DNA of 11,326 nucleotides from Candidatus Aminicenantes bacterium (lineage in GTDB: Bacteria > Acidobacteriota > Aminicenantia > UBA2199), in the NCBI GenBank assembly GCA_026393795.1, contig JAPKZL010000050.1, positions 1 through 11,326 of the forward strand, in the 5' to 3' direction. The notes under the pieces were generated by a model, which saw nothing but the letters and a program-made list of their open reading frames with translations, was not told where the DNA came from and made no database searches. Below, piece by piece: positions 181-11,326 of the stretch. The position numbers and the translations under genes were made by a program. Numbering within the stretch: position 1 is the first letter of the stretch; the number at the start of each line of letters is the position of its first letter.

Positions 181-1005
181 ATGGCTCTCTACATCGTCCC
201 GACGCCGATCGGCAACCTGCAGGACATCACCGAACGGGCGGTCGTCGTCCTGCGCCGGGTCGACTTCATCATCGCCGAGGACAGCCGCTACTCGCAGAAG
301 CTTCTCAACCACTTCAACATCAAAAAACGGATCATCAGCCATTACCGTCCCAAGGAGGAAACGCAGGCGGAGAAGATCCTGGCCCTGCTCACCGGCCAGG
401 ACGGGGCTTTGATCACCGATTCGGGCACCCCGGCCATCTCCGATCCCGGCTTCATCCTGATCGCCAAAGCCATCGCACGGAACATCCCGGTCATCCCCCT
501 GCCTGGGCCGACCGCCTTTGTCCCGGCCCTGGTCGCTTCGGGCATCGATCCGCGCCGCTTCATCTTCCTCGGCTTTCCCCCGCGGGGACGAAACGACCTG
601 CACACTTTCTGCAAATCCCTGGCTCCCCTTCCCTATACCATGGTGTTTTACGAATCGCCGCGGCGCAGCGAGGAATTCCTGCGCAGCGCCGCCGCCGTGT
701 TCGGCGCACGCCCTTTCGCCCTGGCCAAGGAATTGAGCAAGAAGCATGAAACGATCATTCGCGGCCGTTTGGATGAATGGCCGCAGGCGCTGAAAGACCA
801 AACTATTCTGGGAGAAATCGTCATCGTCATCGCCGGCACCGGGGCCAAGGCGCACCCGGTCGAACCGCCGCCGCTGCTGCGGAGCATCGAGGACGTTTAC
901 GTCTATTTCCGCGAACGCCACGGCCTGGGTAAAAACTTGCTGAAGAAGATCCTCATGCAAAAGAAAGCAAAAAAAGCGGCCAAACGAGGTTCGGATGCCG
1001 GGTAA
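181..1005 (+). CDS. rsmI: 16S rRNA (cytidine1402-2'-O)-methyltransferase RsmI (tetrapyrrole-methylase fold)
   Basis: The N-terminus LYIVPTPIGNLQDIT, the DSRYSQKLL motif and the GTPAISDPG motif are hallmark RsmI signatures. The protein is 274 aa, a normal length for this family. Confidence 0.9.
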   Translation: MALYIVPTPIGNLQDITERAVVVLRRVDFIIAEDSRYSQKLLNHFNIKKRIISHYRPKEETQAEKILALLTGQDGALITDSGTPAISDPGFILIAKAIARNIPVIPLPGPTAFVPALVASGIDPRRFIFLGFPPRGRNDLHTFCKSLAPLPYTMVFYESPRRSEEFLRSAAAVFGARPFALAKELSKKHETIIRGRLDEWPQALKDQTILGEIVIVIAGTGAKAHPVEPPPLLRSIEDVYVYFRERHGLGKNLLKKILMQKKAKKAAKRGSDAG

Positions 1006-2125
1006 ACGTTTGGAACGAAACCACCGCCGGCAGCGGTTTTTTGGCGCCGCCCTCCTCCTGCTGCTCGCTTTGGGTGAACCGGGCTCCGCCCAGGACGAGG
1101 CCGCCGCCAAACCGCTCGAGCCGGCCCGCGGCGGCTTCGTGGTCGCCCCGGTCGTCTACTACACCCCCGAAACGCTTTTTTCATGGGGCATCGTCGGCAT
1201 CCATTATTTCCGCTTCGGCCGTTCCGTCGTCCCCTCCCGCCTTTCTCATTACCGCTTCAACCTGGTCCGCACCCAGAACAGGCAGACCATCGCCCAGGTG
1301 GACTACGAGCTCTACCTGGCCGGCGGCGCCATCCTGCTGGACGGCCAGGCGAAATACTGGCTTTACCCGGATCGTTTTTACGGCAGCGGCAACCGCAGCC
1401 TGGCACAGGACCGCGAAGACTTCAACGCCCGCAACTGGCGCCTGACGGCGAACCTCCAGCGCCGCTGGGGCGCGAACCTGTTCACCGGGATGCACCTGGA
1501 GATGTTCTCGCAAGCCATCACCGAAACCGCCGGCAACGGCCTGCTGGCCGCACGGGAGATCCCCGGCAGCCGCGGCGCCAGGCTGACCGCGATCGGCCTT
1601 TTCGGCAAGTGGGACAGCCGCGACAACACCTTCTCCGCCGGCAAGGGGGCTTATGGCGCGCTCTTGCTTAACTTTTTCCCCAAGGTGCTGGGCAGCGATT
1701 TTGCCTTCAGCCAGCTGACCCTGGACGCCAGGAATTACTTCCCTTTGGGCCGCGGCGCGGTGCTGGCCGTCCAGGCCATCGGCAAGACGACCTGGGGCGA
1801 GTGCCCGTTTCAGGCGCTGCCCATGTTCGGCGGCCTGAACCTGCTGCGCGGCTTCTACGAAGGCCGCTACCGCGATAAAAGCATGCTGGCCATACAGGCC
1901 GAGTACCGCCTGCCCTTGTGGCGGCGCTTCGGGTTGTGCGCTTTTGCCGGGTTGGCCCAGGTGCAGCCGCGGGCCGGGCTGCTGTCGCTGGCGGAATTTC
2001 ACCCGGCCGCCGGCGTCGGCCTGCGCTACAAGTTCAACCCGCGCGAGAACCTGAACGTCCGCCTGGACGTCGGCTTCGCCGACTCGTCCCCCGCCTTATA
2101 TCTCACCTTCGCCGAGGCATTTTGA
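995..2125 (+). CDS. Omp85/BamA-superfamily outer-membrane beta-barrel protein (Bac_surface_Ag-like, no POTRA domains)
   Basis: The ATG at 995 overlaps the rsmI stop by 11 nt and has GAGG 6 nt upstream. The N-terminus has a signal-like hydrophobic stretch, FFGAALLLLLALGEPGSAQD. The internal GGLNLLRGFYEGRY and AEYRLPL resemble the Omp85 loop-6 and barrel motifs. The C-terminal beta-signal LYLTFAEAF ends in Phe. Confidence 0.6.
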   Translation: MPGKRLERNHRRQRFFGAALLLLLALGEPGSAQDEAAAKPLEPARGGFVVAPVVYYTPETLFSWGIVGIHYFRFGRSVVPSRLSHYRFNLVRTQNRQTIAQVDYELYLAGGAILLDGQAKYWLYPDRFYGSGNRSLAQDREDFNARNWRLTANLQRRWGANLFTGMHLEMFSQAITETAGNGLLAAREIPGSRGARLTAIGLFGKWDSRDNTFSAGKGAYGALLLNFFPKVLGSDFAFSQLTLDARNYFPLGRGAVLAVQAIGKTTWGECPFQALPMFGGLNLLRGFYEGRYRDKSMLAIQAEYRLPLWRRFGLCAFAGLAQVQPRAGLLSLAEFHPAAGVGLRYKFNPRENLNVRLDVGFADSSPALYLTFAEAF

Positions 2126-2159: not shown

Positions 2160-3767
2160 ATGCGACGCATGCGAAACTGGTTGACTGTCTTGAGCCTGTT
2201 GATTTTCATCTGTATGCCGCTGGCAGCGGACGATATCTTCGCGCCGGTGAAGAAGGGCGAGTTGGACTCCGTTAAAACACTGCTGGAGAAGGACCCGGCC
2301 CTGCTGAATGCCCGGGGGGAATCCGACCGCACCCCCTTGCTGGAAGCCGTCCTTTCACGCCAGCCTGCCGTTTTTGAATTTCTGCTGGAAAAGGGGGCCG
2401 ATTTCAACCTGGTCAACAAGGAAGGCTTTGCCCCCGTTCATTTCGCCGCCTTCCTCGGGGAAACCGAGCTGGTCAAAATGCTCATTGCCAAGGGCGCTCC
2501 GCTGACCGTCAACGCCAACGTCATCGGGGCCACACCCCTCGACCTGGCCGTCAGCGCCGGGCGCAGGGAGATGGTCGAGCTGCTGATCGCCAAGGGGGCT
2601 CCGTTGAACCTGAAGGATAAAAAGGGCAACACGCCGCTGATCAAGGCTGTCCTGTCGGGGCGGGCGGAAATCGCCGGCCTGCTGATCCACAAAGGGGCCG
2701 CTGTCGATGAAAAAGACCAGATGGGCAGCACGCCGCTGCTGCTGGCCGCCCTGACCGGCCAGAAGGAGCTGGCGGCATGGCTGATCGAAAACAAGGCCGA
2801 CATCAACGCGGCCAACTCGCTCGGCGGCACGCCGCTCAGCGTCGCCGTCCGCGAGGGGCACCAGGAGGTCGTTGACCTGCTCGTGGCCAAGGGGGCGAGC
2901 AAGGATTTTCTCAAGCAGCCCGTCCTGGAAGGCGATTACCTGGGGCAGAAGATTCCCGGATTGGCGCCCGAGCGTTTCGCGCCGGGGACCGTATCGACCG
3001 AAAAAAGCGAATTGAACTCGGTTTTCAGTGCCGACGGCAAGGAGTTTTATTTTGCCGTCCAAAGCGGCCCAATGAAGTGGGTGATCATGGTGATGAAGCA
3101 GGAAAACGGCCGCTGGTCAAAACCGCTGCCGGCTTCGTTTTCCGGCCAGTACAGCGACGTCGATCTCTTCATCACCCCCGACAACAAGAGGCTGTTCTAC
3201 AGCTCCAACCGCCCGCTGGCGGAAAACGGAGCGGCCAAGAAGGATTTTGATATCTGGATGGTCGAGCGCACAACGGACGGCTGGTCAAAACCCAGCAATC
3301 CGGGCAGCCCGATCAATTCGGCCGAAGCCGAGTTCTATCCTTCGCTCACCGCGGACGGCACCCTGTATTTCCAGTCCCAGCGCCCGGACACTCTCGGCTC
3401 CAGGGACATTTACCGCTCCCGGCCGACCGACGGCAAGTATGAAAAAATTGAAAACCTCGGCGCCGCCATCAACAGCACCCTTTTCGAAGGAGACGCCCTG
3501 ATCGCGCCCAAGGAAGACTTCCTTGTTTTTTCGGTCGACCGCCCCGACAGCTTCGGCCAGGGCGACCTGTACATCAGCTTCCGTGATGCCAACGACGGCT
3601 GGACGACTCCGAAAAACATGGGCGACAAGATCAATTCCGAATACCACGAGAATTGCCCGATGCTCTCACCGGATGGAAAATTCCTGTTTTTCACCCGCAA
3701 CAACGACATCTACTGGGTGGACGCGCTGGTCATCAAGAATTTGCAGGGCGGCCAGCAGCCCCTCTGA
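2160..3767 (+). CDS. Secreted ankyrin-repeat (about 7 repeats) + PD40/TolB-like beta-propeller fusion protein
   Basis: GGAGG lies 7 nt upstream of the ATG. The N-terminal signal peptide is MRRMRNWLTVLSLLIFICMPLAADD. GxTPLxxAxxxGxxExVxxLIxKGA repeats recur between about residues 30 and 250. The C-terminal half carries PD40-type repeats: FSADGKEFYF, ITPDNKRLFYSS, LTADGTLYFQS, LSPDGKFLFFT. Confidence 0.8.
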   Translation: MRRMRNWLTVLSLLIFICMPLAADDIFAPVKKGELDSVKTLLEKDPALLNARGESDRTPLLEAVLSRQPAVFEFLLEKGADFNLVNKEGFAPVHFAAFLGETELVKMLIAKGAPLTVNANVIGATPLDLAVSAGRREMVELLIAKGAPLNLKDKKGNTPLIKAVLSGRAEIAGLLIHKGAAVDEKDQMGSTPLLLAALTGQKELAAWLIENKADINAANSLGGTPLSVAVREGHQEVVDLLVAKGASKDFLKQPVLEGDYLGQKIPGLAPERFAPGTVSTEKSELNSVFSADGKEFYFAVQSGPMKWVIMVMKQENGRWSKPLPASFSGQYSDVDLFITPDNKRLFYSSNRPLAENGAAKKDFDIWMVERTTDGWSKPSNPGSPINSAEAEFYPSLTADGTLYFQSQRPDTLGSRDIYRSRPTDGKYEKIENLGAAINSTLFEGDALIAPKEDFLVFSVDRPDSFGQGDLYISFRDANDGWTTPKNMGDKINSEYHENCPMLSPDGKFLFFTRNNDIYWVDALVIKNLQGGQQPL

Positions 3768-3786: not shown

Positions 3787-3817
3787 GGCAGCCGGCTGCG
3801 TTACGCATGCCGGCTGC
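3787..3817. terminator. GC-rich hairpin between convergent genes (candidate bidirectional terminator)
   Basis: GCAGCCGGCTGCG..CGCATGCCGGCTGC is an inverted repeat with a stem of about 13 bp and one bulge. It sits between the + gene ending at 3767 and the - gene ending at 3820. The T-rich flank is on the minus-strand side (GTTTAAGTCGTCTTTTC). Confidence 0.5.
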
Positions 3818-3819
3818 TG

Positions 3820-4590
3820 TCAATTCATAATCGACCGCTGGTCGTCCCTACCCGCAAACTCCTTGCCCAAGGTATATGCACGCTCCAGGTAGCCCCTCCG
3901 TGTGTCCTCGCCGACGGTGGGAACCCCGTAGAAATAGACATGCTCGACTTTTTTGACTCCCGGGTAGCGCAGTCCCCAGTCATCGATCATGCGCCGCATG
4001 GGCAGTTCCCAATCGGCCTTGTAATCTTTTTCGCTGAAAAGGGTGGTATTGATCACCAGCGCTTTTTCCTGGCGCAGCAGCGGCACCCTGCCGCTCGCGT
4101 CCCCTTGCCAGCCGACCGGCGTCAGGGCATAGGCGTCGCCGTAGGCAAAAACCCGCTCGAACCACCCTTTCAGGATGGCAGGAAAATGCAGCCAGTATAC
4201 CGGCGAGATAAAAACCAGTCCCTGGGCATTTTTGACTTTCTCCCACTGGGCCGTGACATCTTTAGGCCTGTGGCTGTGGATGAATTTCGCCACGGCCGGG
4301 AGATCCTTGTTGCGCAGCCAGCGTGAGGCCACGAACCTGCGCAAGGGGCCGCCGGCGGAGTCGATCACGTGCTGCTTGAGGTTCATTAGTTCAAGTATTT
4401 CCAGGGGCATGCTTTCGTGCACGTAGCTGGCAAAGTCCATGGTACGGAAGACGGGGTCGAAACGGATGGCGTAGAGGTCGACCACGTCGATTTCGTGGCC
4501 GGCATCCCGCAGTCCGGCGCTGAGACGCTCAAGGACGGCATGGCAGAAAGACTTGGGTTGCGGATGGGCGTAAACGATTAAAACTCTCAT
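3820..4590 (-). CDS. NAD(P)H:quinone oxidoreductase, NQO1/MdaB-like flavodoxin-fold (Flavodoxin_2 family)
   Basis: The true start is the ATG at 4590..4588, with an AAGGAG RBS 6 nt upstream on the minus strand. MRVLIVYAHPQPKSFCHAVLERL...DLYAIRFDPV is typical of FMN/FAD quinone reductases. The 184 extra N-terminal residues in the listed 440-aa ORF are low-complexity read-through. Confidence 0.8.
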   Translation of the reverse strand: MRVLIVYAHPQPKSFCHAVLERLSAGLRDAGHEIDVVDLYAIRFDPVFRTMDFASYVHESMPLEILELMNLKQHVIDSAGGPLRRFVASRWLRNKDLPAVAKFIHSHRPKDVTAQWEKVKNAQGLVFISPVYWLHFPAILKGWFERVFAYGDAYALTPVGWQGDASGRVPLLRQEKALVINTTLFSEKDYKADWELPMRRMIDDWGLRYPGVKKVEHVYFYGVPTVGEDTRRGYLERAYTLGKEFAGRDDQRSIMN

Positions 4591-4625
4591 TGACTGCTCC
4601 TTATGAAGTCGGTTTTGCGCATCAA

Positions 4626-5045
4626 TCAATACACGAATGGAACAAGTTTTTTCACCTGCGCCGCGTAGGCGGCAAAGCGCTCTCCGAAGGCTTGCTGCAA
4701 CCCCTTTTCCTCCAGGGCGATCAGGGGAAATATGATCGCCAGGTAGATCGCAAAAACCGCCAGGAGCGCCCCGGACTGGGTCAGGCAGAACAACCCGAAC
4801 GAAATACCCAGCGCCCCGGTGTACAGCGGGTTCCTGACCAGCCTGAAGGGTCCGCGGCTGACCAGATCGTCGTGGCGGCGCGGCGCGCTCCCCCCGAGCG
4901 GGTAGGTGCGGTGGTGAGCCATCCGCGGCCAGGGCATGATCAGCCTGTCGAAGATGGAGCCGGTCGCCAGGCGCTTGACGGCCACCAGCGCTGCCAGTAA
5001 GATCAGAATGGCTATCCCAAGTATGGTTTGATTGAATAGGTGCAT
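4626..5045 (-). CDS. Isoprenylcysteine carboxyl methyltransferase / phospholipid methyltransferase (ICMT/PEMT) family membrane protein
   Basis: The protein is hydrophobic and multi-TM. RLVRNPLYTGALGISFGLF and the C-terminal EEKGLQQAFGERFAAYAAQVKKLVP match the ICMT/PEMT signature. AAGGAGGAGGAG sits immediately upstream of the ATG at 5045. The gene is in a different frame from the over-extended 3820..5142 ORF. Confidence 0.7.
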   Translation of the reverse strand: MHLFNQTILGIAILILLAALVAVKRLATGSIFDRLIMPWPRMAHHRTYPLGGSAPRRHDDLVSRGPFRLVRNPLYTGALGISFGLFCLTQSGALLAVFAIYLAIIFPLIALEEKGLQQAFGERFAAYAAQVKKLVPFVY

Positions 5046-5056
5046 CTCCTCCTCCT

Positions 5057-5644
5057 TTATATTTGATCCGATTTTTTTGAATCATCCAAGTCTCCAGGTT
5101 GGCAGCTGCAACCCCCGGCTTCTCCATCAACCGCTTCTTCATCCTCGCTGCCGCAGCAGGAAACGGCTTGCTCCTCGCTTGCGCCCAGAACCGCCCCGGC
5201 CTCGGCTTTTGCCTTCTGGCAGGCGACGTCTCTTATCGCGCAAGCGATCTTTAGCGCCGCGAACATCTGCCCGTCCGTCGCCCCCAGGGCACGGGCGGCG
5301 TCCATGTGCCCCCTGACGCTGGTGCAGCAATTTACGGCATAGGCGGCGGCGATCGCCACGAGCTCGCGCAGCATCGTCGGGGCGCCGTCCGGTTCGGGGA
5401 TGGCCGGGCTCCACTCGGCCTGAGTCAAGCCGCCGGCCCTGGCCATGATGCCGGTCGCCGCCATCCTTACCCTGGCGGCATCACCTGCGGCTTGGCGGAT
5501 ATCTCCTTCGCTCGCTCCGGCGCCGGCCGCTGCCCGCAGGTGAAACTTGATGCAGGGCAGGCAGCCGCTGGCAACAGATGCTCCCACGGCGATGATCTCC
5601 TGATCTTTGTCGCCAAGGACAGGGTCTTCTTTGTGTTTGGTCAT
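5057..5644 (-). CDS. Carboxymuconolactone decarboxylase (CMD)/AhpD-like family protein with Cys-rich acidic C-terminal tail
   Basis: GCLPCIKFH is a CxxCxxxH AhpD-core motif, and a second CMD-like half carries NCCTSVRGH. The C-terminal tail is SCCGSEDEEAVDGEAGGCSCQPGDLDD. The track ORF starts at a TTG at 5665. I prefer the ATG at 5644, 6 nt after a GGGAGG RBS, though the ATG at 5647 is also possible. Confidence 0.6.
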   Translation of the reverse strand: MTKHKEDPVLGDKDQEIIAVGASVASGCLPCIKFHLRAAAGAGASEGDIRQAAGDAARVRMAATGIMARAGGLTQAEWSPAIPEPDGAPTMLRELVAIAAAYAVNCCTSVRGHMDAARALGATDGQMFAALKIACAIRDVACQKAKAEAGAVLGASEEQAVSCCGSEDEEAVDGEAGGCSCQPGDLDDSKKSDQI

Positions 5645-5761
5645 CATGAACCTCCCTGGATTCAATGGTAAGGACGAAATAGGGAATGCAATGGATACAT
5701 GGCCGGGAATCCGGCCCTTGGAGGAGGTTGGGAAAATCAGGGAAGATGCGTTGCCGGGGGG

Positions 5762-6331
5762 TTACTTTTTTGGTTCGCAGACCAGGACGCCGCGTTCGTC
5801 CAAAGAGAATTTGCAGCCGGATGCCAACATGGTTTTCAGCTGGCGCCGGGCGCGGTGGAGCCTGATCTTGACCGTGCTGAGCGGCAGGGCGAGGAGAGCG
5901 GCGATCTCAGGGCCGCTCACTCCGTGCATGTCATGAAGTAGAATCACCGAGCGGAAGGCATCGGGAATATCAGCCAGAAAGCGATTGACACAGGCGCTCA
6001 TTTGCTCCTGCTCGAGGGCTTGCTGCATCGAAGGCAAATCGGGGTCCGGAGGGTCGACGGCGGCGAGGTCAATCCCGGATTCCCTGGATGCGAAACGGGC
6101 CCGCTGCCGCAGCCGGTCGAGGCATACGTGGGTGGCGACACGATAGAGCCATGAAAGCAAGGCGCCCGGATCGCGCACCGTTTCGCGCTCGCGGTGGGCG
6201 CGGAGGAACGCCTCCTGGGTCAGGTCCTCGGCCTCGGCCGAGTCGCGGACCATGCCCCGGACATAGCGGAAGACGCGCTCGTAGTTTTTTTCGAAAAAGC
6301 CGGAAATGTCATCCGCTGGAGAGGCAGGCAT
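5762..6331 (-). CDS. ECF-type RNA polymerase sigma factor (sigma-70 family) with short Cys-containing C-terminal extension
   Basis: Region 2 is EDLTQEAFLRAHR and region 4 is the HTH GPEIAALLALPLSTVKIRLHRARRQLK. A 20-aa tail ASGCKFSLDERGVLVCEPKK follows. The likely start is the ATG at 6331 with a GGAGA RBS 5 nt upstream. The track ORF begins at an upstream GTG at 6364. Confidence 0.85.
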   Translation of the reverse strand: MPASPADDISGFFEKNYERVFRYVRGMVRDSAEAEDLTQEAFLRAHRERETVRDPGALLSWLYRVATHVCLDRLRQRARFASRESGIDLAAVDPPDPDLPSMQQALEQEQMSACVNRFLADIPDAFRSVILLHDMHGVSGPEIAALLALPLSTVKIRLHRARRQLKTMLASGCKFSLDERGVLVCEPKK

Positions 6332-6400
6332 ATTTTTCTCCTGGCAATTTAGGAGGTGCGTCACGCGTTTCTATCATGAGCACAATTTTAGGGAATCAGC

Positions 6401-6416
6401 TGCAAAAATGCAACCA
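6401..6416 (-). promoter_or_regulatory. Candidate sigma-54 (-24/-12) promoter TGGTTGCATTTTTGCA upstream of the ECF sigma gene
   Basis: The minus-strand sequence has GG and GC at the correct 10-nt spacing and an exact TTGCA -12 element. It lies about 70 nt upstream of the ATG at 6331. A sigma-54 activator gene is present in the window. Confidence 0.3.
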
Positions 6417-6433
6417 GTGAAAACAGTTGACTT

Positions 6434-6467
6434 TGACGGTGCGCTCTTGCCTCACCTTTTCACCCTT
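6434..6467 (-). repeat. 34-bp copy (33/34 identical) of the rnpB P10-P12 conserved core, direct repeat of 8984-9017
   Basis: TGACGGTG[C/A]GCTCTTGCCTCACCTTTTCACCCTT occurs at both sites. The minus-sense sequence AAGGGTGAAAAGGTGAGGCAAGAGCGCACC matches the universal RNase P RNA motif. The flanks do not continue the rnpB homology. Confidence 0.7.
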
Positions 6468-6542
6468 GCTGAACAGAGCACAGACGGCCGAGCAGTTTTT
6501 TCTTCAGACATATCGGAAACTCCGGAACCTGCCGTCGGAGGT

Positions 6543-8615
6543 TTACTTTTTGGGCAACTTCTGGCCGGGGATCCCCGGCTCCGAGGGCTTGATACCCGGC
6601 TTGCGTTCAATTTCGGCCACGGGCTTTTTTTCGACCGCTACGATGCCTTTCGTTATATTGCCAAGGACGGCAGCCATGAGGCCTTCGGATGTGCCGCCGC
6701 CCTTCTCGCCGCCGATGACCAGGATGGCGGGCATGATCTTGATGCCATTATCGGCAAGGGCCTTGATGGCGTTGACGACAGCAGTGGCTTGCGGACCGAG
6801 GGCTTGCACCTGGCGCTCGTAGGCTTCGGCGCTGGCCATACCGATCGCGCGGACTTCGACGCCTTTGGCATTGCCCACATCGGTGAGAAAACTGGCCTCG
6901 CCTTGACCTTCCACCTTGCGCGCATCGGCCTGGTTCTTCCTGATCTCGATCCCAACCTTGGACTTGGCCAGCTCGGCCTGCATTTCGGCGGTTCCCTTGC
7001 TCTGTTCCATGGCGATGCGCTGGTCCTGAGCGTCTTTTTGTTTCTGGAAGGTCGTGATTTCCTGGTTGGCAATTTCGCGCTGGGTCAGGACAGTCACCAT
7101 CTGCGGTGGCAGGATGACGTCCTGGATGTAGACCCCGCGGGTCTCCACTTCGTATTCGTTCAACTTGTTTCGGATGTGCTCATTCGCCTCTTCCTGCACT
7201 CCCTGCCGGGTCTCGATAAAGCGGATGGCGGGCATGCTCTGGAGCTTGTCACGGAAGTGGTTGCCCACGGCAGCCTGAAGCACCTCGTTGACCAGGTTGG
7301 TCATGGTGCCGACGATGCTGATCACCTTCGGGGCCTTCGTGTCCGGTACGTGGATCTGGACCTGGAGATCGATGTTGAAGATGAAGCCTTCGCGGCTCTT
7401 GGCCTCGATCTGCTTGAGCTCCTGATCCAGGTTGTGCGCCTTGGAGGTGGCCTCAGCCCAGTTCAGGGTCAGGATGCAAGTCGGAACAATCTCGGCATTG
7501 TAGATGTGTGGGTTGATGGGGTATTTCCCGGTGCGCAAGGGTTCTTCCCAAATGCCGCGATGGCCGGGCCTCACGAGACTGCCGAACTTGAAAGTCTCTC
7601 CGGACGTGTCCTCGGTCGGAAGCCCGACATAGGATTTGACCACGGCGACCTCGCCCTGTTCGATGACCAGCATGGGGACAATCTCGATCTCGACAAGGAA
7701 AGGATTGAGAATGTAGGCGCCGTAGAGCAGCGGGTCGTGTTGCAGACCTATTTTTCCGCCGTTGTCCAGGAATGCCTGGAAGTCCTGGTAGTTATTGTGG
7801 AGATTGTTCTTGTTGCCAAGGATGACTTCGATGAGCTCAGAGTTCCTTACCGGGTTAGCTTTCGTCGCTGCACGTTCAATTTTTGCGATATCGTCATAGC
7901 CGCCGAGGCGCGAAGCAATGTCGCCCGAAGGTAAAGGATCGCCTTCGAGGGCCGTGATGATGCCGATGGCGTCTATAAGTCTATCCACGCCGTTTTTTGC
8001 GTTTCTCTCGAACAAGGGAGCGATGCGGGTGACGTTCAATTGGCCTTCGTGCTTGAGCCCGAAGTTCACGAAGCTGAGTCCGCCGCGTTCACGGGAAGCC
8101 CGCTGGAGCTCCGGAGAGACCGGCAGACCATAAACATTTTTCTTGGTGATGACCAGAAATCCGACCGGATGGATGGGAAGGGTCTGGCCTGGGGAGAGGA
8201 CCCGCCGCTGGACGCCCTTTTGGCCGCCATTCTCGATGAAAACGCGGAGGTCGGTGAAATTACCAAACACCTTCTTGTCGACAGCCGACTTGGCGCCGGT
8301 GGGAAGGGACGATCCGACCTGGGCAATGACGACCCCGATCTCGCCGGCGGGGATCTGAATCCAAGGATACTTGTCCACTTTATAGACGAGCCAGAACTTG
8401 AAGCGCCAGCCGGGCATGAGCAGTTCCGATTGGTAACCGGCTTCACCGTTGAATGCAATGACGTTGTCTTTCGACAGTTTCTTGAAGCCGAACCTCTTGG
8501 TGACAAGACCGACTTCGGTCGGGCCGATCATCCTGATCGAGGGCCAGATGAGGAAGACGAAAAGAAAAATGAAAGAACCAGCATAAAGAAACGGGGTGAT
8601 CGGAGTCAAATCCAT
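6543..8615 (-). CDS. Flotillin-family (SPFH/band-7, YqiK/FloT-like) membrane protein with duplicated SPFH region
   Basis: The ATG at 8615 has an AGGAGG RBS 6 nt upstream. The N-terminal TM is PFLYAGSFIFLFVFLIWPSI, followed by the PTEVGLVTKRFG SPFH start. A second SPFH-like segment leads into an Ala/Glu/Gln-rich coiled-coil (AEMQAELAKSKVGIEIRKNQADARKVEG). The C-terminus LADNGIKIMPAILVIGGEKGGG is typical of flotillins. Confidence 0.85.
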   Translation of the reverse strand: MDLTPITPFLYAGSFIFLFVFLIWPSIRMIGPTEVGLVTKRFGFKKLSKDNVIAFNGEAGYQSELLMPGWRFKFWLVYKVDKYPWIQIPAGEIGVVIAQVGSSLPTGAKSAVDKKVFGNFTDLRVFIENGGQKGVQRRVLSPGQTLPIHPVGFLVITKKNVYGLPVSPELQRASRERGGLSFVNFGLKHEGQLNVTRIAPLFERNAKNGVDRLIDAIGIITALEGDPLPSGDIASRLGGYDDIAKIERAATKANPVRNSELIEVILGNKNNLHNNYQDFQAFLDNGGKIGLQHDPLLYGAYILNPFLVEIEIVPMLVIEQGEVAVVKSYVGLPTEDTSGETFKFGSLVRPGHRGIWEEPLRTGKYPINPHIYNAEIVPTCILTLNWAEATSKAHNLDQELKQIEAKSREGFIFNIDLQVQIHVPDTKAPKVISIVGTMTNLVNEVLQAAVGNHFRDKLQSMPAIRFIETRQGVQEEANEHIRNKLNEYEVETRGVYIQDVILPPQMVTVLTQREIANQEITTFQKQKDAQDQRIAMEQSKGTAEMQAELAKSKVGIEIRKNQADARKVEGQGEASFLTDVGNAKGVEVRAIGMASAEAYERQVQALGPQATAVVNAIKALADNGIKIMPAILVIGGEKGGGTSEGLMAAVLGNITKGIVAVEKKPVAEIERKPGIKPSEPGIPGQKLPKK

Positions 8616-9189: not shown

Positions 9190-9262
9190 ATTATACCAGG
9201 AGATTCGATTTTTTGATAGAGGTTGCGGCGCAGCAGGCCGGTTACCTGACGACGATATACTC
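9147..9262 (-). pseudogene. Remnant/duplicate of the 3' end (Fis-type HTH and C-terminus) of a sigma-54 activator gene, overlapping the rnpB promoter and 5' end
   Basis: The minus-strand frame reads ...[32 protein letters not shown]. The true activator C-terminus at 10353-10470 reads ...[36 protein letters not shown] identity is about 81% over 85 bp, with two perfectly conserved blocks of 17 and 21 bp and the stop codon in the same position. Confidence 0.55.
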
Positions 9263-10285
9263 CTTGATTTTGGCGAAAGTCTTCTCCTTGATGCCTTTGA
9301 CCTTCATAATGTCTTCGATCTTGGCATAAGGGCGTCCGGCGATGATCGCCTTGGCTTTGACCGGGCCGATACCCAGGAGACCGTCGAGTTGCTCCTCGCT
9401 GGCTTTGTTGATGTTGATCGTCTCGCCGGGCTTGAGCTTGGGCGAGACGGCCGTTTCATCATCCGCTTCAACGGTCACCAGGTTTTTGATGTCGTCGAAT
9501 CTCGCCTGGCCGATGCCGCTGACATTCTTAATGTCCTCGACGTTCTTGAAAGGCCGGGCGGCGATGATCTTCTCGGCAAGCTCCGGTCCGATGCCGGGGA
9601 GTGCTTCCAGGGCGGCTTTATCGGCGCTGTTCAGGTCAACAGGTCCGGCGGCTGTTGACTGCTTGGCGGCCGGCGAGGTCTGTTTAGCGGCAGCCTTGGC
9701 TTCGCTCTCTATCTTTTTGCCGGCCTTGGCTGCTTTAACCGTCACCAGGTCCTTAAGTTTGTCGAATGTCGCCTGGCCGATGCCCTTGACATTTTTCAGG
9801 TCATCGACGTTTTTGAAGGGACGGGCGGCGATGATGTTTTCAGCCAAGGTTGAACCGATTCCCGGCAGGTTTTCAATGGCCGCCTCGTCGGCGGTGTTGA
9901 GATTGACGATCTCCCCGGCAACGGTTTTATCGTTTCCCTTGGCGGCTGTTTCGGTCTTGGCTTTGGCCTTGGTCGCGGTTTCGGCCGTTTTAGCGGCCTC
10001 GGCCGCCTCGACAGTCACCAAGTCCTTGAGATCGTCGAATTTTGCCTGGCCGATGCCGCTGACGTTTTTCAGGTCAGCGATGCTTTTGAACGGACGGGCG
10101 GCGATGATCTTCTGGGCCAAGGAAGGGCCAACGCCCTTCAAGGCCTCGAGCTTGGCCAGGGTGGCGGTATTCAGGTTTATTTTTTTCGCTTTCGCCGCGG
10201 CGCCAGCTGGCATGGCCAGCGAACCCAAGAGCAAGCCAAGAACCACCAGGGAAAAAACAAAATGACAACAAATTCTGTTTTTCAT
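9242..10285 (-). CDS. Secreted protein with four tandem ComEA-like helix-hairpin-helix (HhH) DNA-binding modules
   Basis: The signal peptide is MKNRICCHFVFSLVVLGLLLGSLAMPAGAAA. Four repeats of xNLNTAxxxxLExLPGIGxxLAxKIIAARPFKxxxDLKNVxGIGQAxFDxLKxLVTV are separated by Ala/Lys/Thr-rich linkers. The RBS is GAGGT. Confidence 0.85.
   Translation of the reverse strand: MKNRICCHFVFSLVVLGLLLGSLAMPAGAAAKAKKINLNTATLAKLEALKGVGPSLAQKIIAARPFKSIADLKNVSGIGQAKFDDLKDLVTVEAAEAAKTAETATKAKAKTETAAKGNDKTVAGEIVNLNTADEAAIENLPGIGSTLAENIIAARPFKNVDDLKNVKGIGQATFDKLKDLVTVKAAKAGKKIESEAKAAAKQTSPAAKQSTAAGPVDLNSADKAALEALPGIGPELAEKIIAARPFKNVEDIKNVSGIGQARFDDIKNLVTVEADDETAVSPKLKPGETININKASEEQLDGLLGIGPVKAKAIIAGRPYAKIEDIMKVKGIKEKTFAKIKEYIVVR
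9245..10180 (-). repeat. DNA-level tandem repeats (about 267-273 nt period, 3 close copies + 1 divergent) encoding the HhH modules
   Basis: GTCACCAGGT.. units recur at 9474, 9741 and 10014. The flanking sequences are highly similar (..GCCTGGCCGATGCCGCTGACATT..GGCGGCGATGATCTTCTC..). Confidence 0.8.
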
Positions 10286-10352: not shown

Positions 10353-11326
10353 TTAAGAAATCGGCGATTCTTCATCCGCGCCCTGCGGCTCGACCATGAT
10401 GCCGAGGGACGCGATTTTTTGATAGAGGTTGCTGCGCGGGAGGCCGATCTCGCGGGCCGTCTTGGCCACGTTGTACTCGTATTCCTTCAGCTTCTGTTCC
10501 AGGTAGGCCTTTTCCGCCTCGTTCTTGAACTCCTTCCAATTCTTGATCTGGAGCAGCGCCATTTCGCCGCCGGCGCTGCTGCCATTGATGTAATCGGGCA
10601 GATCCTGGCTGGTGATCGGATCGGTGCGGCACATGATCAGGAGCCTTTCCACCAGGTTGCGCAACTCGCGCACGTTGCCCTTCCAGGGATAATCCAGCAG
10701 CCGGGAGAGCGCCTCGGGGGAAAATACCTTTTTCTTGTAATTGTTCTCCTCGGAAAAGTAATTGATGAAATGCTCGATCAGCAGCGGGATGTCCTCCTTT
10801 CTTTCGCGCAGCGCCGGCGAATGGATCGGCACCACGTTCAGACGGAAAAAGAGGTCTTCGCGGAAATTGTTCTTCCTGATCTCCTCCTCCAGGTTCTTGT
10901 TGGTGGCCGCGATGACGCGGACGTTGACCTTCTTGATCTCCGGCGAGCCCACCGGCTGCACCTCGCCCTCCTCGAGCACGCGTAAGACCTTGGCCTGGGC
11001 CTTCAGGCTCAGGTCGCCGATCTCGTCCAGGAAAATGCTGCCGCGGTGGGCGCTTTCGAACTTGCCGATCTTTTTCTCATAGGCCCCGGTGAACGATCCT
11101 TTTTCATGCCCGAAAAGCTCGCTCTCGATCAGCTCGTCGGGAATGGCGGCGCAGTTGACCTGGACGAAACGGTTCTGGCTGCGGGCGGACTGCTGGTGGA
11201 TCAGGCGGGCGATGAGTTCCTTGCCGGTGCCGCTGTCGCCGGAGATCAGGACGGTGGAATCGCTGCGGGCCACGCGCCGTATCGTTTCCAGCAGGGCTTT
11301 CATGACCGCCGATTGCCCCACCAGCT
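10353..11326 (-). CDS. Sigma-54-dependent transcriptional activator (NtrC/EBP family), 5'-truncated by the window edge; AAA+ sigma-54 interaction domain + Fis-type HTH
   Basis: The Walker A is [14 protein letters not shown] is the GAFTGA-type sigma-54 contact loop. The arginine-finger region is RVIAATN...ELRNL, and the C-terminal HTH is [19 protein letters not shown]. The N-terminal sensory or receiver domain lies beyond position 11326. Confidence 0.9.

Follow-up and report, generated by a model that had tools for sequence, protein, structure and literature searches.

Extracytoplasmic function (ECF) sigma factors that work without an anti-sigma factor are the least understood part of a large regulator family. 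Group ECF238, formed by merging ECF24 and ECF44, is characterized by conserved Cys residues in a C-terminal extension of ~20 residues, and sometimes in the linker as well, and by the lack of any anti-sigma factor; its members include CorE2 and Bacillus subtilis SigZ, the latter with two C-terminal Cys residues (PMC7826278). SigZ is monocistronic and not autoregulated (PMC4105308), and this founding member of its branch is still without a known signal or regulon. The CorE-like factors (ECF44) carry a linker CxC motif and a six-Cys domain of 28-38 residues (PMC4937300; PMC8999054), and in both CorE and CorE2 the C-terminal and linker Cys residues are essential, while corE2 itself is not induced by metal (PMC4937300; PMC6851896). 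In a third group, ECF41, the promoter TGTCACA-N16-CGTC drives neighboring CMD genes, and the neighboring carboxymuconolactone decarboxylase, oxidoreductase or epimerase (COE) proteins have no role in signaling (PMC3426412). Here we analyze an ECF sigma factor gene, the three genes behind it and a promoter motif lying between them on an 11,326-nt stretch of Candidatus Aminicenantes DNA (contig JAPKZL010000050.1; hereafter the window).

On balance, this locus probably encodes a stand-alone, self-sensing sigma factor of the SigZ/ECF238 type, which is controlled through three Cys residues and reads TGTATCC-N16-CGTC to drive a three-gene operon. The features on which this reading depends are the following.

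5762-6331, minus strand: ECF sigma factor gene, 189 aa (Pfam Sigma70_r2, 69.2 bits; Sigma70_r4_2, 42.9 bits)
5673-5699, minus strand: ECF-type promoter TGTATCC-N16-CGTC, the sole exact match in the window
5057-5647, minus strand: CMD/AhpD-family gene, 196 aa, two-domain (Pfam CMD, 67.6 bits)
4626-5045, minus strand: PEMT/ICMT-family membrane methyltransferase gene, 139 aa (Pfam PEMT, 39.6 bits)
3820-4590, minus strand: Flavodoxin_2 (NQO1/KefF/MdaB-like) NAD(P)H oxidoreductase gene, 256 aa (Pfam, 119.5 bits)
3788-3817, minus strand: terminal hairpin, from RNA folding

The sigma factor and its three cysteines

The sigma factor ends in a 20-residue C-terminal tail, ASGCKFSLDERGVLVCEPKK (residues 170-189; nt 5765-5824), that contains two Cys residues, C173 (codon 5813-5815) and C185 (5777-5779). 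A third, C114 (5990-5992), sits in the sigma2-sigma4 linker within the sequence MSACV, which appears in homologues as the motif M-S-x-C-V at the start of sigma4. All three residues are invariant in alignments of 25 and of 108 homologues (57-81% identity), and the tail around C173 and C185 follows the pattern G-C-x-F-S-x-D-x-R-G-V-L-V-C-E-P-K. Homologues in this identity range are numerous, and nearly all are 189-192 aa long. The start codon is an ATG preceded by a GGAG ribosome-binding site, and a GTG at 6364 is an unlikely alternative start. An earlier note on this DNA had described a sigma factor with a short two-Cys tail; that description holds, with C114 equally invariant.

The same three Cys residues are kept in clade members down to ~31% identity, in loci from metagenomes and genomes, and are missing from the unrelated ECF sigma factors found in the same scans. 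A profile search of 1.84 billion cluster representatives returned ~230 clusters (50% identity) with E values of 1e-30 or lower; of the top 150 representatives, nearly all align through the tail. The search pattern for the tail matched 108 representatives at 50% identity, and 101 of these have the C-x11-C spacing. Beyond the C-x11-C hairpin, some representatives of the sigma clade at this level (P0229, P0243) have additional Cys-rich sequence, such as ...EEECRDQSGKCKC and ...NTCCGPDSPSCSCVQCE, and extended tails of this type may be a step towards the longer Cys-rich domains found in CorE-like factors. Generic ECF patterns dominate our sigma scans of genome and metagenome contigs, in which ~20 of the 160 listed loci belong to the clade; the remainder served as the negative control for the promoter motif described below.

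An AlphaFold2 model of the sigma factor (mean pLDDT 82.5; pTM 0.77) has the standard ECF fold, with residues 91-110 of the linker disordered and the tail folded into a beta-hairpin (173-177/183-187; pLDDT 80-86). Sequence and fold searches of the PDB returned generic ECF structures, none of them spanning the tail, and a tblastn search against plasmids yielded generic ECF matches below 37% identity and no annotated SigZ.

With respect to classification, the best of the 91 NCBIfam sigma models that match the protein are PRK11922 and two SigZ models, and alignment continues through the tail, to residues 184-185, with the SigZ models alone. Six distant clade members behave likewise, and the SigZ models are top or near-top matches for these as well. 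Moreover, the protein shares with ECF238 an architecture of sigma2 and sigma4 domains only (by Pfam), a C-terminal extension of ~20 residues with conserved Cys, a conserved linker Cys (C114) of the sort found in some members, and a conserved neighborhood free of anti-sigma genes. Judged by these sequence features it files as a SigZ-like factor of the ECF238 kind, a placement made from the published group description. The short Cys tail, which the earlier note had put forward as one candidate regulator, is the best candidate, as it is invariant across the clade and fits the published ECF238 description.

Two other placements were rejected. Strict CorE-like (ECF44) membership was set aside for lack of the CxC linker motif and the six-Cys domain. 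The sigma factor is also not an ECF41 member, because it has no SnoaL-like extension: the 189-aa protein has no extra Pfam domain, and in the AlphaFold2 model nothing but the hairpin follows sigma4. In ECF41 this extension is ~100 residues long. ECF41-type NCBIfam models are not among the best matches of the sigma factor.

Loci of relatives are numbered here with the prefix L, and about ten of their neighborhoods were read as gene tables. No ZAS-type or membrane anti-sigma gene lies beside the sigma gene of the window (by Pfam) or beside the sigma genes of these ~10 relatives (by gene table). The absence of a recognizable anti-sigma factor reported in the earlier note is therefore found both in the window and in related loci.

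The promoter behind the sigma gene and its predicted targets

The four genes had been described as a closely spaced minus-strand set, and the open reading frame list, the minus-strand reading and the Pfam matches, all five of which exceed their cut-offs, agree. The intergenic gaps are 114 nt between the sigma and CMD genes (117 nt from the second ATG), 11 nt between the CMD and methyltransferase genes, and 35 nt between the methyltransferase and reductase genes. The prediction of an NQO1-like reductase is borne out by the Flavodoxin_2 match; the protein also scores 81 bits against NCBIfam PRK09739, which is below that model's cut-off, and an orthologue in L081 is 72% identical and occupies the same operon position. 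As to the claim of a single cluster, the genes and their spacing stand, but the four genes are probably not one simple transcription unit because a conserved ECF-type promoter lies within the 114-nt sigma-CMD gap. The hairpin just past the reductase stop codon (-25.2 kcal/mol; z = -3.9; none of 200 shuffles folds as well) is probably the end of the operon, within a convergent intergenic region.

The promoter motif (5673-5699) ends 25 nt before the CMD start codon and has the consensus, approximately, gGTGTATCCtT...tYCGTCyt. The 16 nt between the -35 element and a CGTC -10 element give it the geometry of ECF promoters. The motif occurs in every close relative. Specifically, the distance from the exact form to the CMD start is 25-29 nt in the window, L081, L083, L085 and L167-L169 and 58 nt in L084; in L085 the CMD sequence that it precedes is a 51-aa N-terminal fragment. 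Across 169 loci (1.58 Mb) there are 20 exact sites, all of them in loci of this sigma clade, as against ~0.75 expected by chance (3.2 Mb, both strands), and the exact motif is present in none of the ~140 loci that carry other ECF sigma factors. A weight matrix derived from these sites recovered the variants CGTATCC and TGTATCT in further clade loci, with four background hits in 2.75 Mb of non-clade sequence.

The earlier note had suggested a search for ECF promoters in front of the sigma gene and of the genes downstream. TGTATCC-N16-CGTC is what was found before the CMD gene, and no copy lies upstream of the sigma gene in the window. Pipelines that seek autoregulatory motifs upstream of ECF genes would miss a promoter in this position. 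Promoter prediction in the ECF Hub pipeline assumes autoregulation, so that it may have overlooked a motif located downstream of the sigma gene. The RNA of the sigma-CMD gap is not significantly structured (z = -1.0), and a riboswitch or attenuator there was rejected for this reason.

In loci with a sigma factor at least 63% identical to that of the window (L081-L086, L167-L170 and one JGI contig), a two-domain CMD gene follows 101-142 nt after the sigma gene. At least 17 of the CMD homologues lie on contigs equal in length to contigs that carry sigma homologues. The CMD gene is followed by a variable set that includes a 117-133-aa membrane protein, a 164-381-aa PEMT/ICMT protein, DUF1761 and DUF6789-like proteins and the Flavodoxin_2 reductase. 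One assembly, GCA_040961665.1, contains three paralogous sigma-CMD clusters (L081, L083, L085), and these evidently rearrange often. In L085 the promoter is followed by the CMD fragment, a 780-aa FtsX/MacB permease and a full CMD gene, and a 58-aa reductase remnant stands after the methyltransferase. In most relatives the multi-pass membrane protein of 117-133 aa, which matches nothing in Pfam or NCBIfam, is encoded between the CMD gene and that of the methyltransferase; the window, L169 and L170 lack it. Its positions are as follows.

L081, 9306-9695: multi-pass membrane protein
L083, 9312-9701: multi-pass membrane protein
L084, 9350-9736: multi-pass membrane protein
L085, 12004-12405: multi-pass membrane protein
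L086, 9329-9685: multi-pass membrane protein
L167, 1431-1832: multi-pass membrane protein

Among more distant relatives, the motif precedes single- or two-domain CMD proteins with Cys-rich tails (L087, L089, L099), DGC-domain proteins (L003, L091, L099; Pfam 48-65 bits), Cys/Met membrane peptides of 58-77 aa such as ...WWIFPL...MxxC (L089, L097, L098), a Met-rich exported protein (L091), and DUF3566-like and YgaP-like membrane proteins, the latter with a C-terminal MCDC (L001, L002). In L001, L002, L088 and L099 the last gene of the operon behind the motif is the sigma gene. The operon behind the motif in L094 encodes an arsenite methyltransferase (ArsM; ~909-1712, minus strand), which scores 316.8 bits against an NCBIfam cut-off of 263, together with a small membrane protein and a Cys/Met-rich peptide of 72 aa (ECGCDCGEMM). 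Overall, the content of the regulon is dominated by thiol- or thioether-rich proteins and methyltransferases, and our best guess is therefore that the signal is either a soft metal(loid) or a reactive species of sulfur or selenium or an electrophile. A literature search for links between ECF sigma factors and genes for ArsM, AhpD or DGC-domain proteins returned nothing relevant.

In terms of mechanism, the sigma factor would be made independently of the signal, probably from a housekeeping-type promoter or by read-through, and would not be autoregulated here. C114 in the linker and C173/C185 in the hairpin would bind a thiophilic metal or metalloid, or would be oxidized or alkylated, and the change at these residues would alter the positioning of sigma2 and sigma4 for binding to core RNA polymerase and promoter. 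The active sigma factor would then read the promoter at 5673-5699, from which the CMD, methyltransferase and reductase genes would be transcribed as one unit ending at the hairpin; a single unit is proposed because of the 11- and 35-nt gaps and the terminal hairpin. Cys sensing without autoregulation is proposed because the behavior of CorE and CorE2, together with the non-autoregulated SigZ, provides precedents. From gene order and motif, the three genes appear to be the target operon of the sigma factor and not its regulators.

Alternative explanations of the locus

Several points weigh against a self-sensing sigma factor of the SigZ/ECF238 type. The protein scores below the SigZ equivalog cut-offs (106.7 against 168.65 bits for TIGR02959; 104.2 against 212 for NF007215), as do six other clade members on TIGR02959 (106-115 bits), and it is therefore not a SigZ orthologue. 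The CxC linker motif that defines CorE is absent, with no second linker Cys in any of the 108 homologues, and in place of the CorE six-Cys domain there is a 20-residue tail with two Cys. The sigma factor is assigned to its promoter solely by their co-occurrence, the signal is guessed from gene content with only one relative tying the promoter to ArsM, and the three Cys residues could form a purely structural zinc site. Finally, the operon may be partly decayed, because the methyltransferase of the window is internally deleted.

The state of this last gene deserves a fuller account. The earlier note had assigned it to the ICMT/PEMT family of membrane methyltransferases, and the family stands, with PEMT at 39.6 bits against a cut-off of 25 and ICMT at 18.4 bits, below its cut-off of 24; an intact protein does not. 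The window gene is a form of a 204-aa protein with an in-frame deletion of 195 nt (65 residues) at the junction 4943-4945, and its multi-helix membrane core is incomplete, being 65 residues short in comparison with L170, L083, L085 and L167. The full-length 204-aa protein is encoded in L170, a contig from another sample, where 1575-1768 is the segment missing from the window. Identity between L170 and the window is 100% for 1,574 nt and 99.2% for the 1,914 nt that follow, with sixteen mismatches clustered past the deletion junction. Either strain variation or an artefact of assembly (a chimera) may account for the deletion. The motif RNP(L/M)Y, which reads RHPMY in L083 and L085, was considered as an inactivating change and not adopted for want of support.

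If the three Cys residues were a structural zinc site only, the sigma factor would be constitutively active and controlled through its own transcription or stability. Invariant Cys triads and tetrads are indeed often structural, H133 (>90% conserved in the close sigma subfamily) could act as a fourth ligand, and, with no promoter motif of its own before the sigma gene, the level of the sigma factor must be set by another input. H133 is not kept in the distant subclade, however, where SELEG is found instead, and in CorE2 the positions homologous to the Cys residues of the window sigma factor decide metal specificity and activation (PMC4937300). As the regulon content also points to a thiol- or metal-related signal, we regard a purely structural role as unlikely.

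A second alternative gives the regulatory role to the CMD protein, as an unconventional soluble anti-sigma factor or co-sensor that holds the sigma factor until its CxxC or its Cys-rich tail is oxidized or loaded with metal. The protein itself is as the earlier note described it, a CMD protein with CxxCxxxH (CLPCIKFH; C29, C32, H36) and an acidic Cys-rich tail; the second domain contributes C107...H114, and the tail has two Cys pairs, CC...CxC, where relatives usually have CxC...CxC(R/Q)(P/T)G. C29, H36, C107 and H114 are invariant in the CMD alignment and C32 is >90% conserved, within a family that is narrow at 68 matches. The score against Pfam PF02627 is far above the cut-off of 23 bits, and the NCBIfam matches are to ahpD_dom and, weakly, to the GSU3128 family and to an AhpD domain fused to ArsM-type methyltransferases. 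An anti-sigma role would accord with the conserved Cys residues of the CMD tail and with the position of the gene directly after the sigma gene in every close relative examined (a 51-aa CMD fragment in L085), and sigma-dependent expression of the protein would then be the usual negative feedback.

The arrangement of the genes argues otherwise. The CMD gene lies behind the clade promoter, and in L084 and L086 a terminator (a GC hairpin and T-run) stands between the sigma stop codon and the motif, so that in these loci the CMD gene is not co-transcribed with the sigma gene. Distant clade members keep the three Cys residues and the promoter, with DGC-domain, small-peptide or ArsM genes in the place of CMD. 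No anti-sigma domain is found in the CMD protein by Pfam or NCBIfam, and the COE neighbors of ECF41 are without a signaling role (PMC3426412). Its position downstream of the clade promoter and its replacement in distant three-Cys members suggest that the CMD protein is a target rather than a regulator; the proposal in the earlier note that it regulates the sigma factor is not sustained, and an anti-sigma or co-sensor function appears improbable.

The remaining features of the window bear largely on the region upstream of the sigma gene.

6401-6416, minus strand: sigma-54-like motif TGGTTGCATTTTTGCA, a doubtful pattern match
6415-6503, minus strand: RNase P RNA relic, 89 nt (Rfam RF00010, 24.1 bits, E = 0.00046; model positions 118-204)
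6543-8615, minus strand: SPFH/Band 7 (flotillin-type) protein, 690 aa
8810-9177, minus strand: complete RNase P RNA gene, bacterial type A (RF00010, 267.6 bits)
9242-10285, minus strand: ComEA-like secreted protein, 347 aa, with four HHH_3 repeats and Ala/Lys-rich linkers between them
10353-11321, minus strand: 3' part of a sigma-54-dependent activator gene (C-terminal 322 residues; AAA+ domain and Fis-type helix-turn-helix)
2160-3767, plus strand: ankyrin and PD40 protein, 535 aa, with N-terminal ankyrin repeats, C-terminal TolB-like beta-propeller repeats and a signal peptide; convergent with the reductase gene

The activator gene runs past the end of the window, and its sensory N-terminus and target promoter lie outside it.

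The earlier note had placed a sigma-54 promoter upstream of the sigma gene. The sigma factor would then be transcribed from 6401-6416 under an enhancer-binding protein, possibly the one encoded at 10353-11321, an arrangement that could coexist with Cys control. The site lies ~70 nt upstream of the sigma start, has GG-N10-GC spacing and a perfect TTGCA -12 element, and no other intergenic match to TGG-N8-TTGCW in the window has the correct orientation; the window also encodes a sigma-54 activator. Its -24 element, however, is only TGG, it agrees with the consensus at 8 of 12 positions, a score reached or exceeded by 24 sites in the window, and chance alone would give 0.79 matches to the loose pattern per window. 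On a direct reading of the sequence, the overlapping bases would also fit a sigma-70-type promoter, TTGCAT (6408-6413), 17 nt and TAAAAT (6385-6390). Between the site and the activator gene lie 4 kb and three genes, and no equivalent site is present upstream of the sigma gene in L081, L083-L086 or L167-L169; L086 has a clear TTGACG-N17-TAGAAT there.

The setting of the site also counts against it. In L169, and in L167 as judged from a contig-end fragment, the RNase P RNA gene (rnpB) is directly upstream of the sigma gene. In the window a 2.46-kb segment that L169 lacks lies between the two; the SPFH-domain gene is in it, as is an rnpB relic, which is 81% identical to rnpB of L169 and adjoins the sigma-54-like motif. 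The relic and the absence of the segment from L169 suggest a rearrangement that brought in the SPFH-domain gene and duplicated part of rnpB in the process, and because rnpB adjoins the sigma gene in L169 and L167, the region upstream of the sigma gene in the window appears to be a recent, lineage-specific arrangement. A weak match that is missing from relatives and sits inside such an insertion makes transcription from a sigma-54 promoter improbable here, and sigma-54 input is not a property of the system. Least probable of all is a conventional anti-sigma factor encoded elsewhere in the genome, for although the window covers no more than 11.3 kb of a metagenome-assembled genome and unlinked anti-sigma genes are known (e.g. 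FpvR for PvdS; PMC6851896), no anti-sigma gene occurs within 8 kb on either side of the sigma gene in five long contigs, and the conserved Cys tail is a sufficient and precedented alternative.

Comparison with described systems

The kind of system to which the self-sensing sigma factor would belong has already been described and is experimentally almost untouched, and the locus reveals no new kind. What is new is the clade signature of a linker Cys and a C-x11-C hairpin, the clade-specific target promoter and a coherent predicted regulon of thiol, metal and methylation functions, which together make an unstudied group testable with a simple reporter and three point mutants. More tentatively, the three-Cys clade could be a one-protein sensor-regulator in which an S3 site, built from the linker Cys and both hairpin Cys residues, for arsenite, another soft metal or metalloid, or reactive sulfur or selenium drives a detoxification regulon of thiol buffering and methylation, made up of Cys-tailed AhpD-like proteins, DGC-domain proteins, Cys/Met peptides, ArsM or PEMT-like methyltransferases and the quinone reductase. 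This remains a speculative possibility. Were it true, the clade would provide the first ECF sigma factor shown to sense a metalloid or thiol-reactive compound directly, and the SigZ branch, without a function since 1997, would gain one.

At the level of individual proteins, the CMD protein resembles AhpD/CMD thiol oxidoreductases in its CMD fold and catalytic CxxCxxxH, and differs from them in having two CMD domains in one chain and an acidic tail with two Cys pairs. The methyltransferase shares the C-terminal cofactor-binding region of the PEMT/ICMT proteins and of the methanethiol S-methyltransferase MddA, with the PEMT match above its cut-off and the ICMT and MddA matches weak; unlike these proteins, the window copy is short by 65 internal residues.

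The ECF41 factors (Ecf41Bli, Ecf41Rsp, SigJ), with whose COE context the earlier note had compared the locus, offer a parallel in design though not in membership. Both systems lack an anti-sigma factor, ECF41 is controlled by a C-terminal extension as this sigma factor would be, and each has a CxxC-type CMD neighbor as target behind a promoter specific to its group. These promoters share the N16 spacing and the CGTC -10 element. The -35 element is TGTCACA in ECF41 and TGTATCC here, and the tail of the window sigma factor is the much shorter 20 residues. Closer in the proposed mode of sensing are Myxococcus xanthus CorE and CorE2, where sensing takes place within the sigma factor through C-terminal and inter-domain Cys residues and no anti-sigma factor takes part. 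Expression of CorE-type sigma factors is largely independent of the signal, and metal-related genes occur in the predicted regulon of relatives of the window sigma factor; the difference lies in the Cys residues themselves, which here comprise a single one in the linker and two in the tail on a 13-residue hairpin. With ECF238 and SigZ the locus shares the two-Cys tail of ~20 residues, the linker Cys, the lack of an anti-sigma gene and the lack of autoregulation. For SigZ neither a conserved neighbor nor a target promoter has been described, whereas the clade of the window sigma factor has both.

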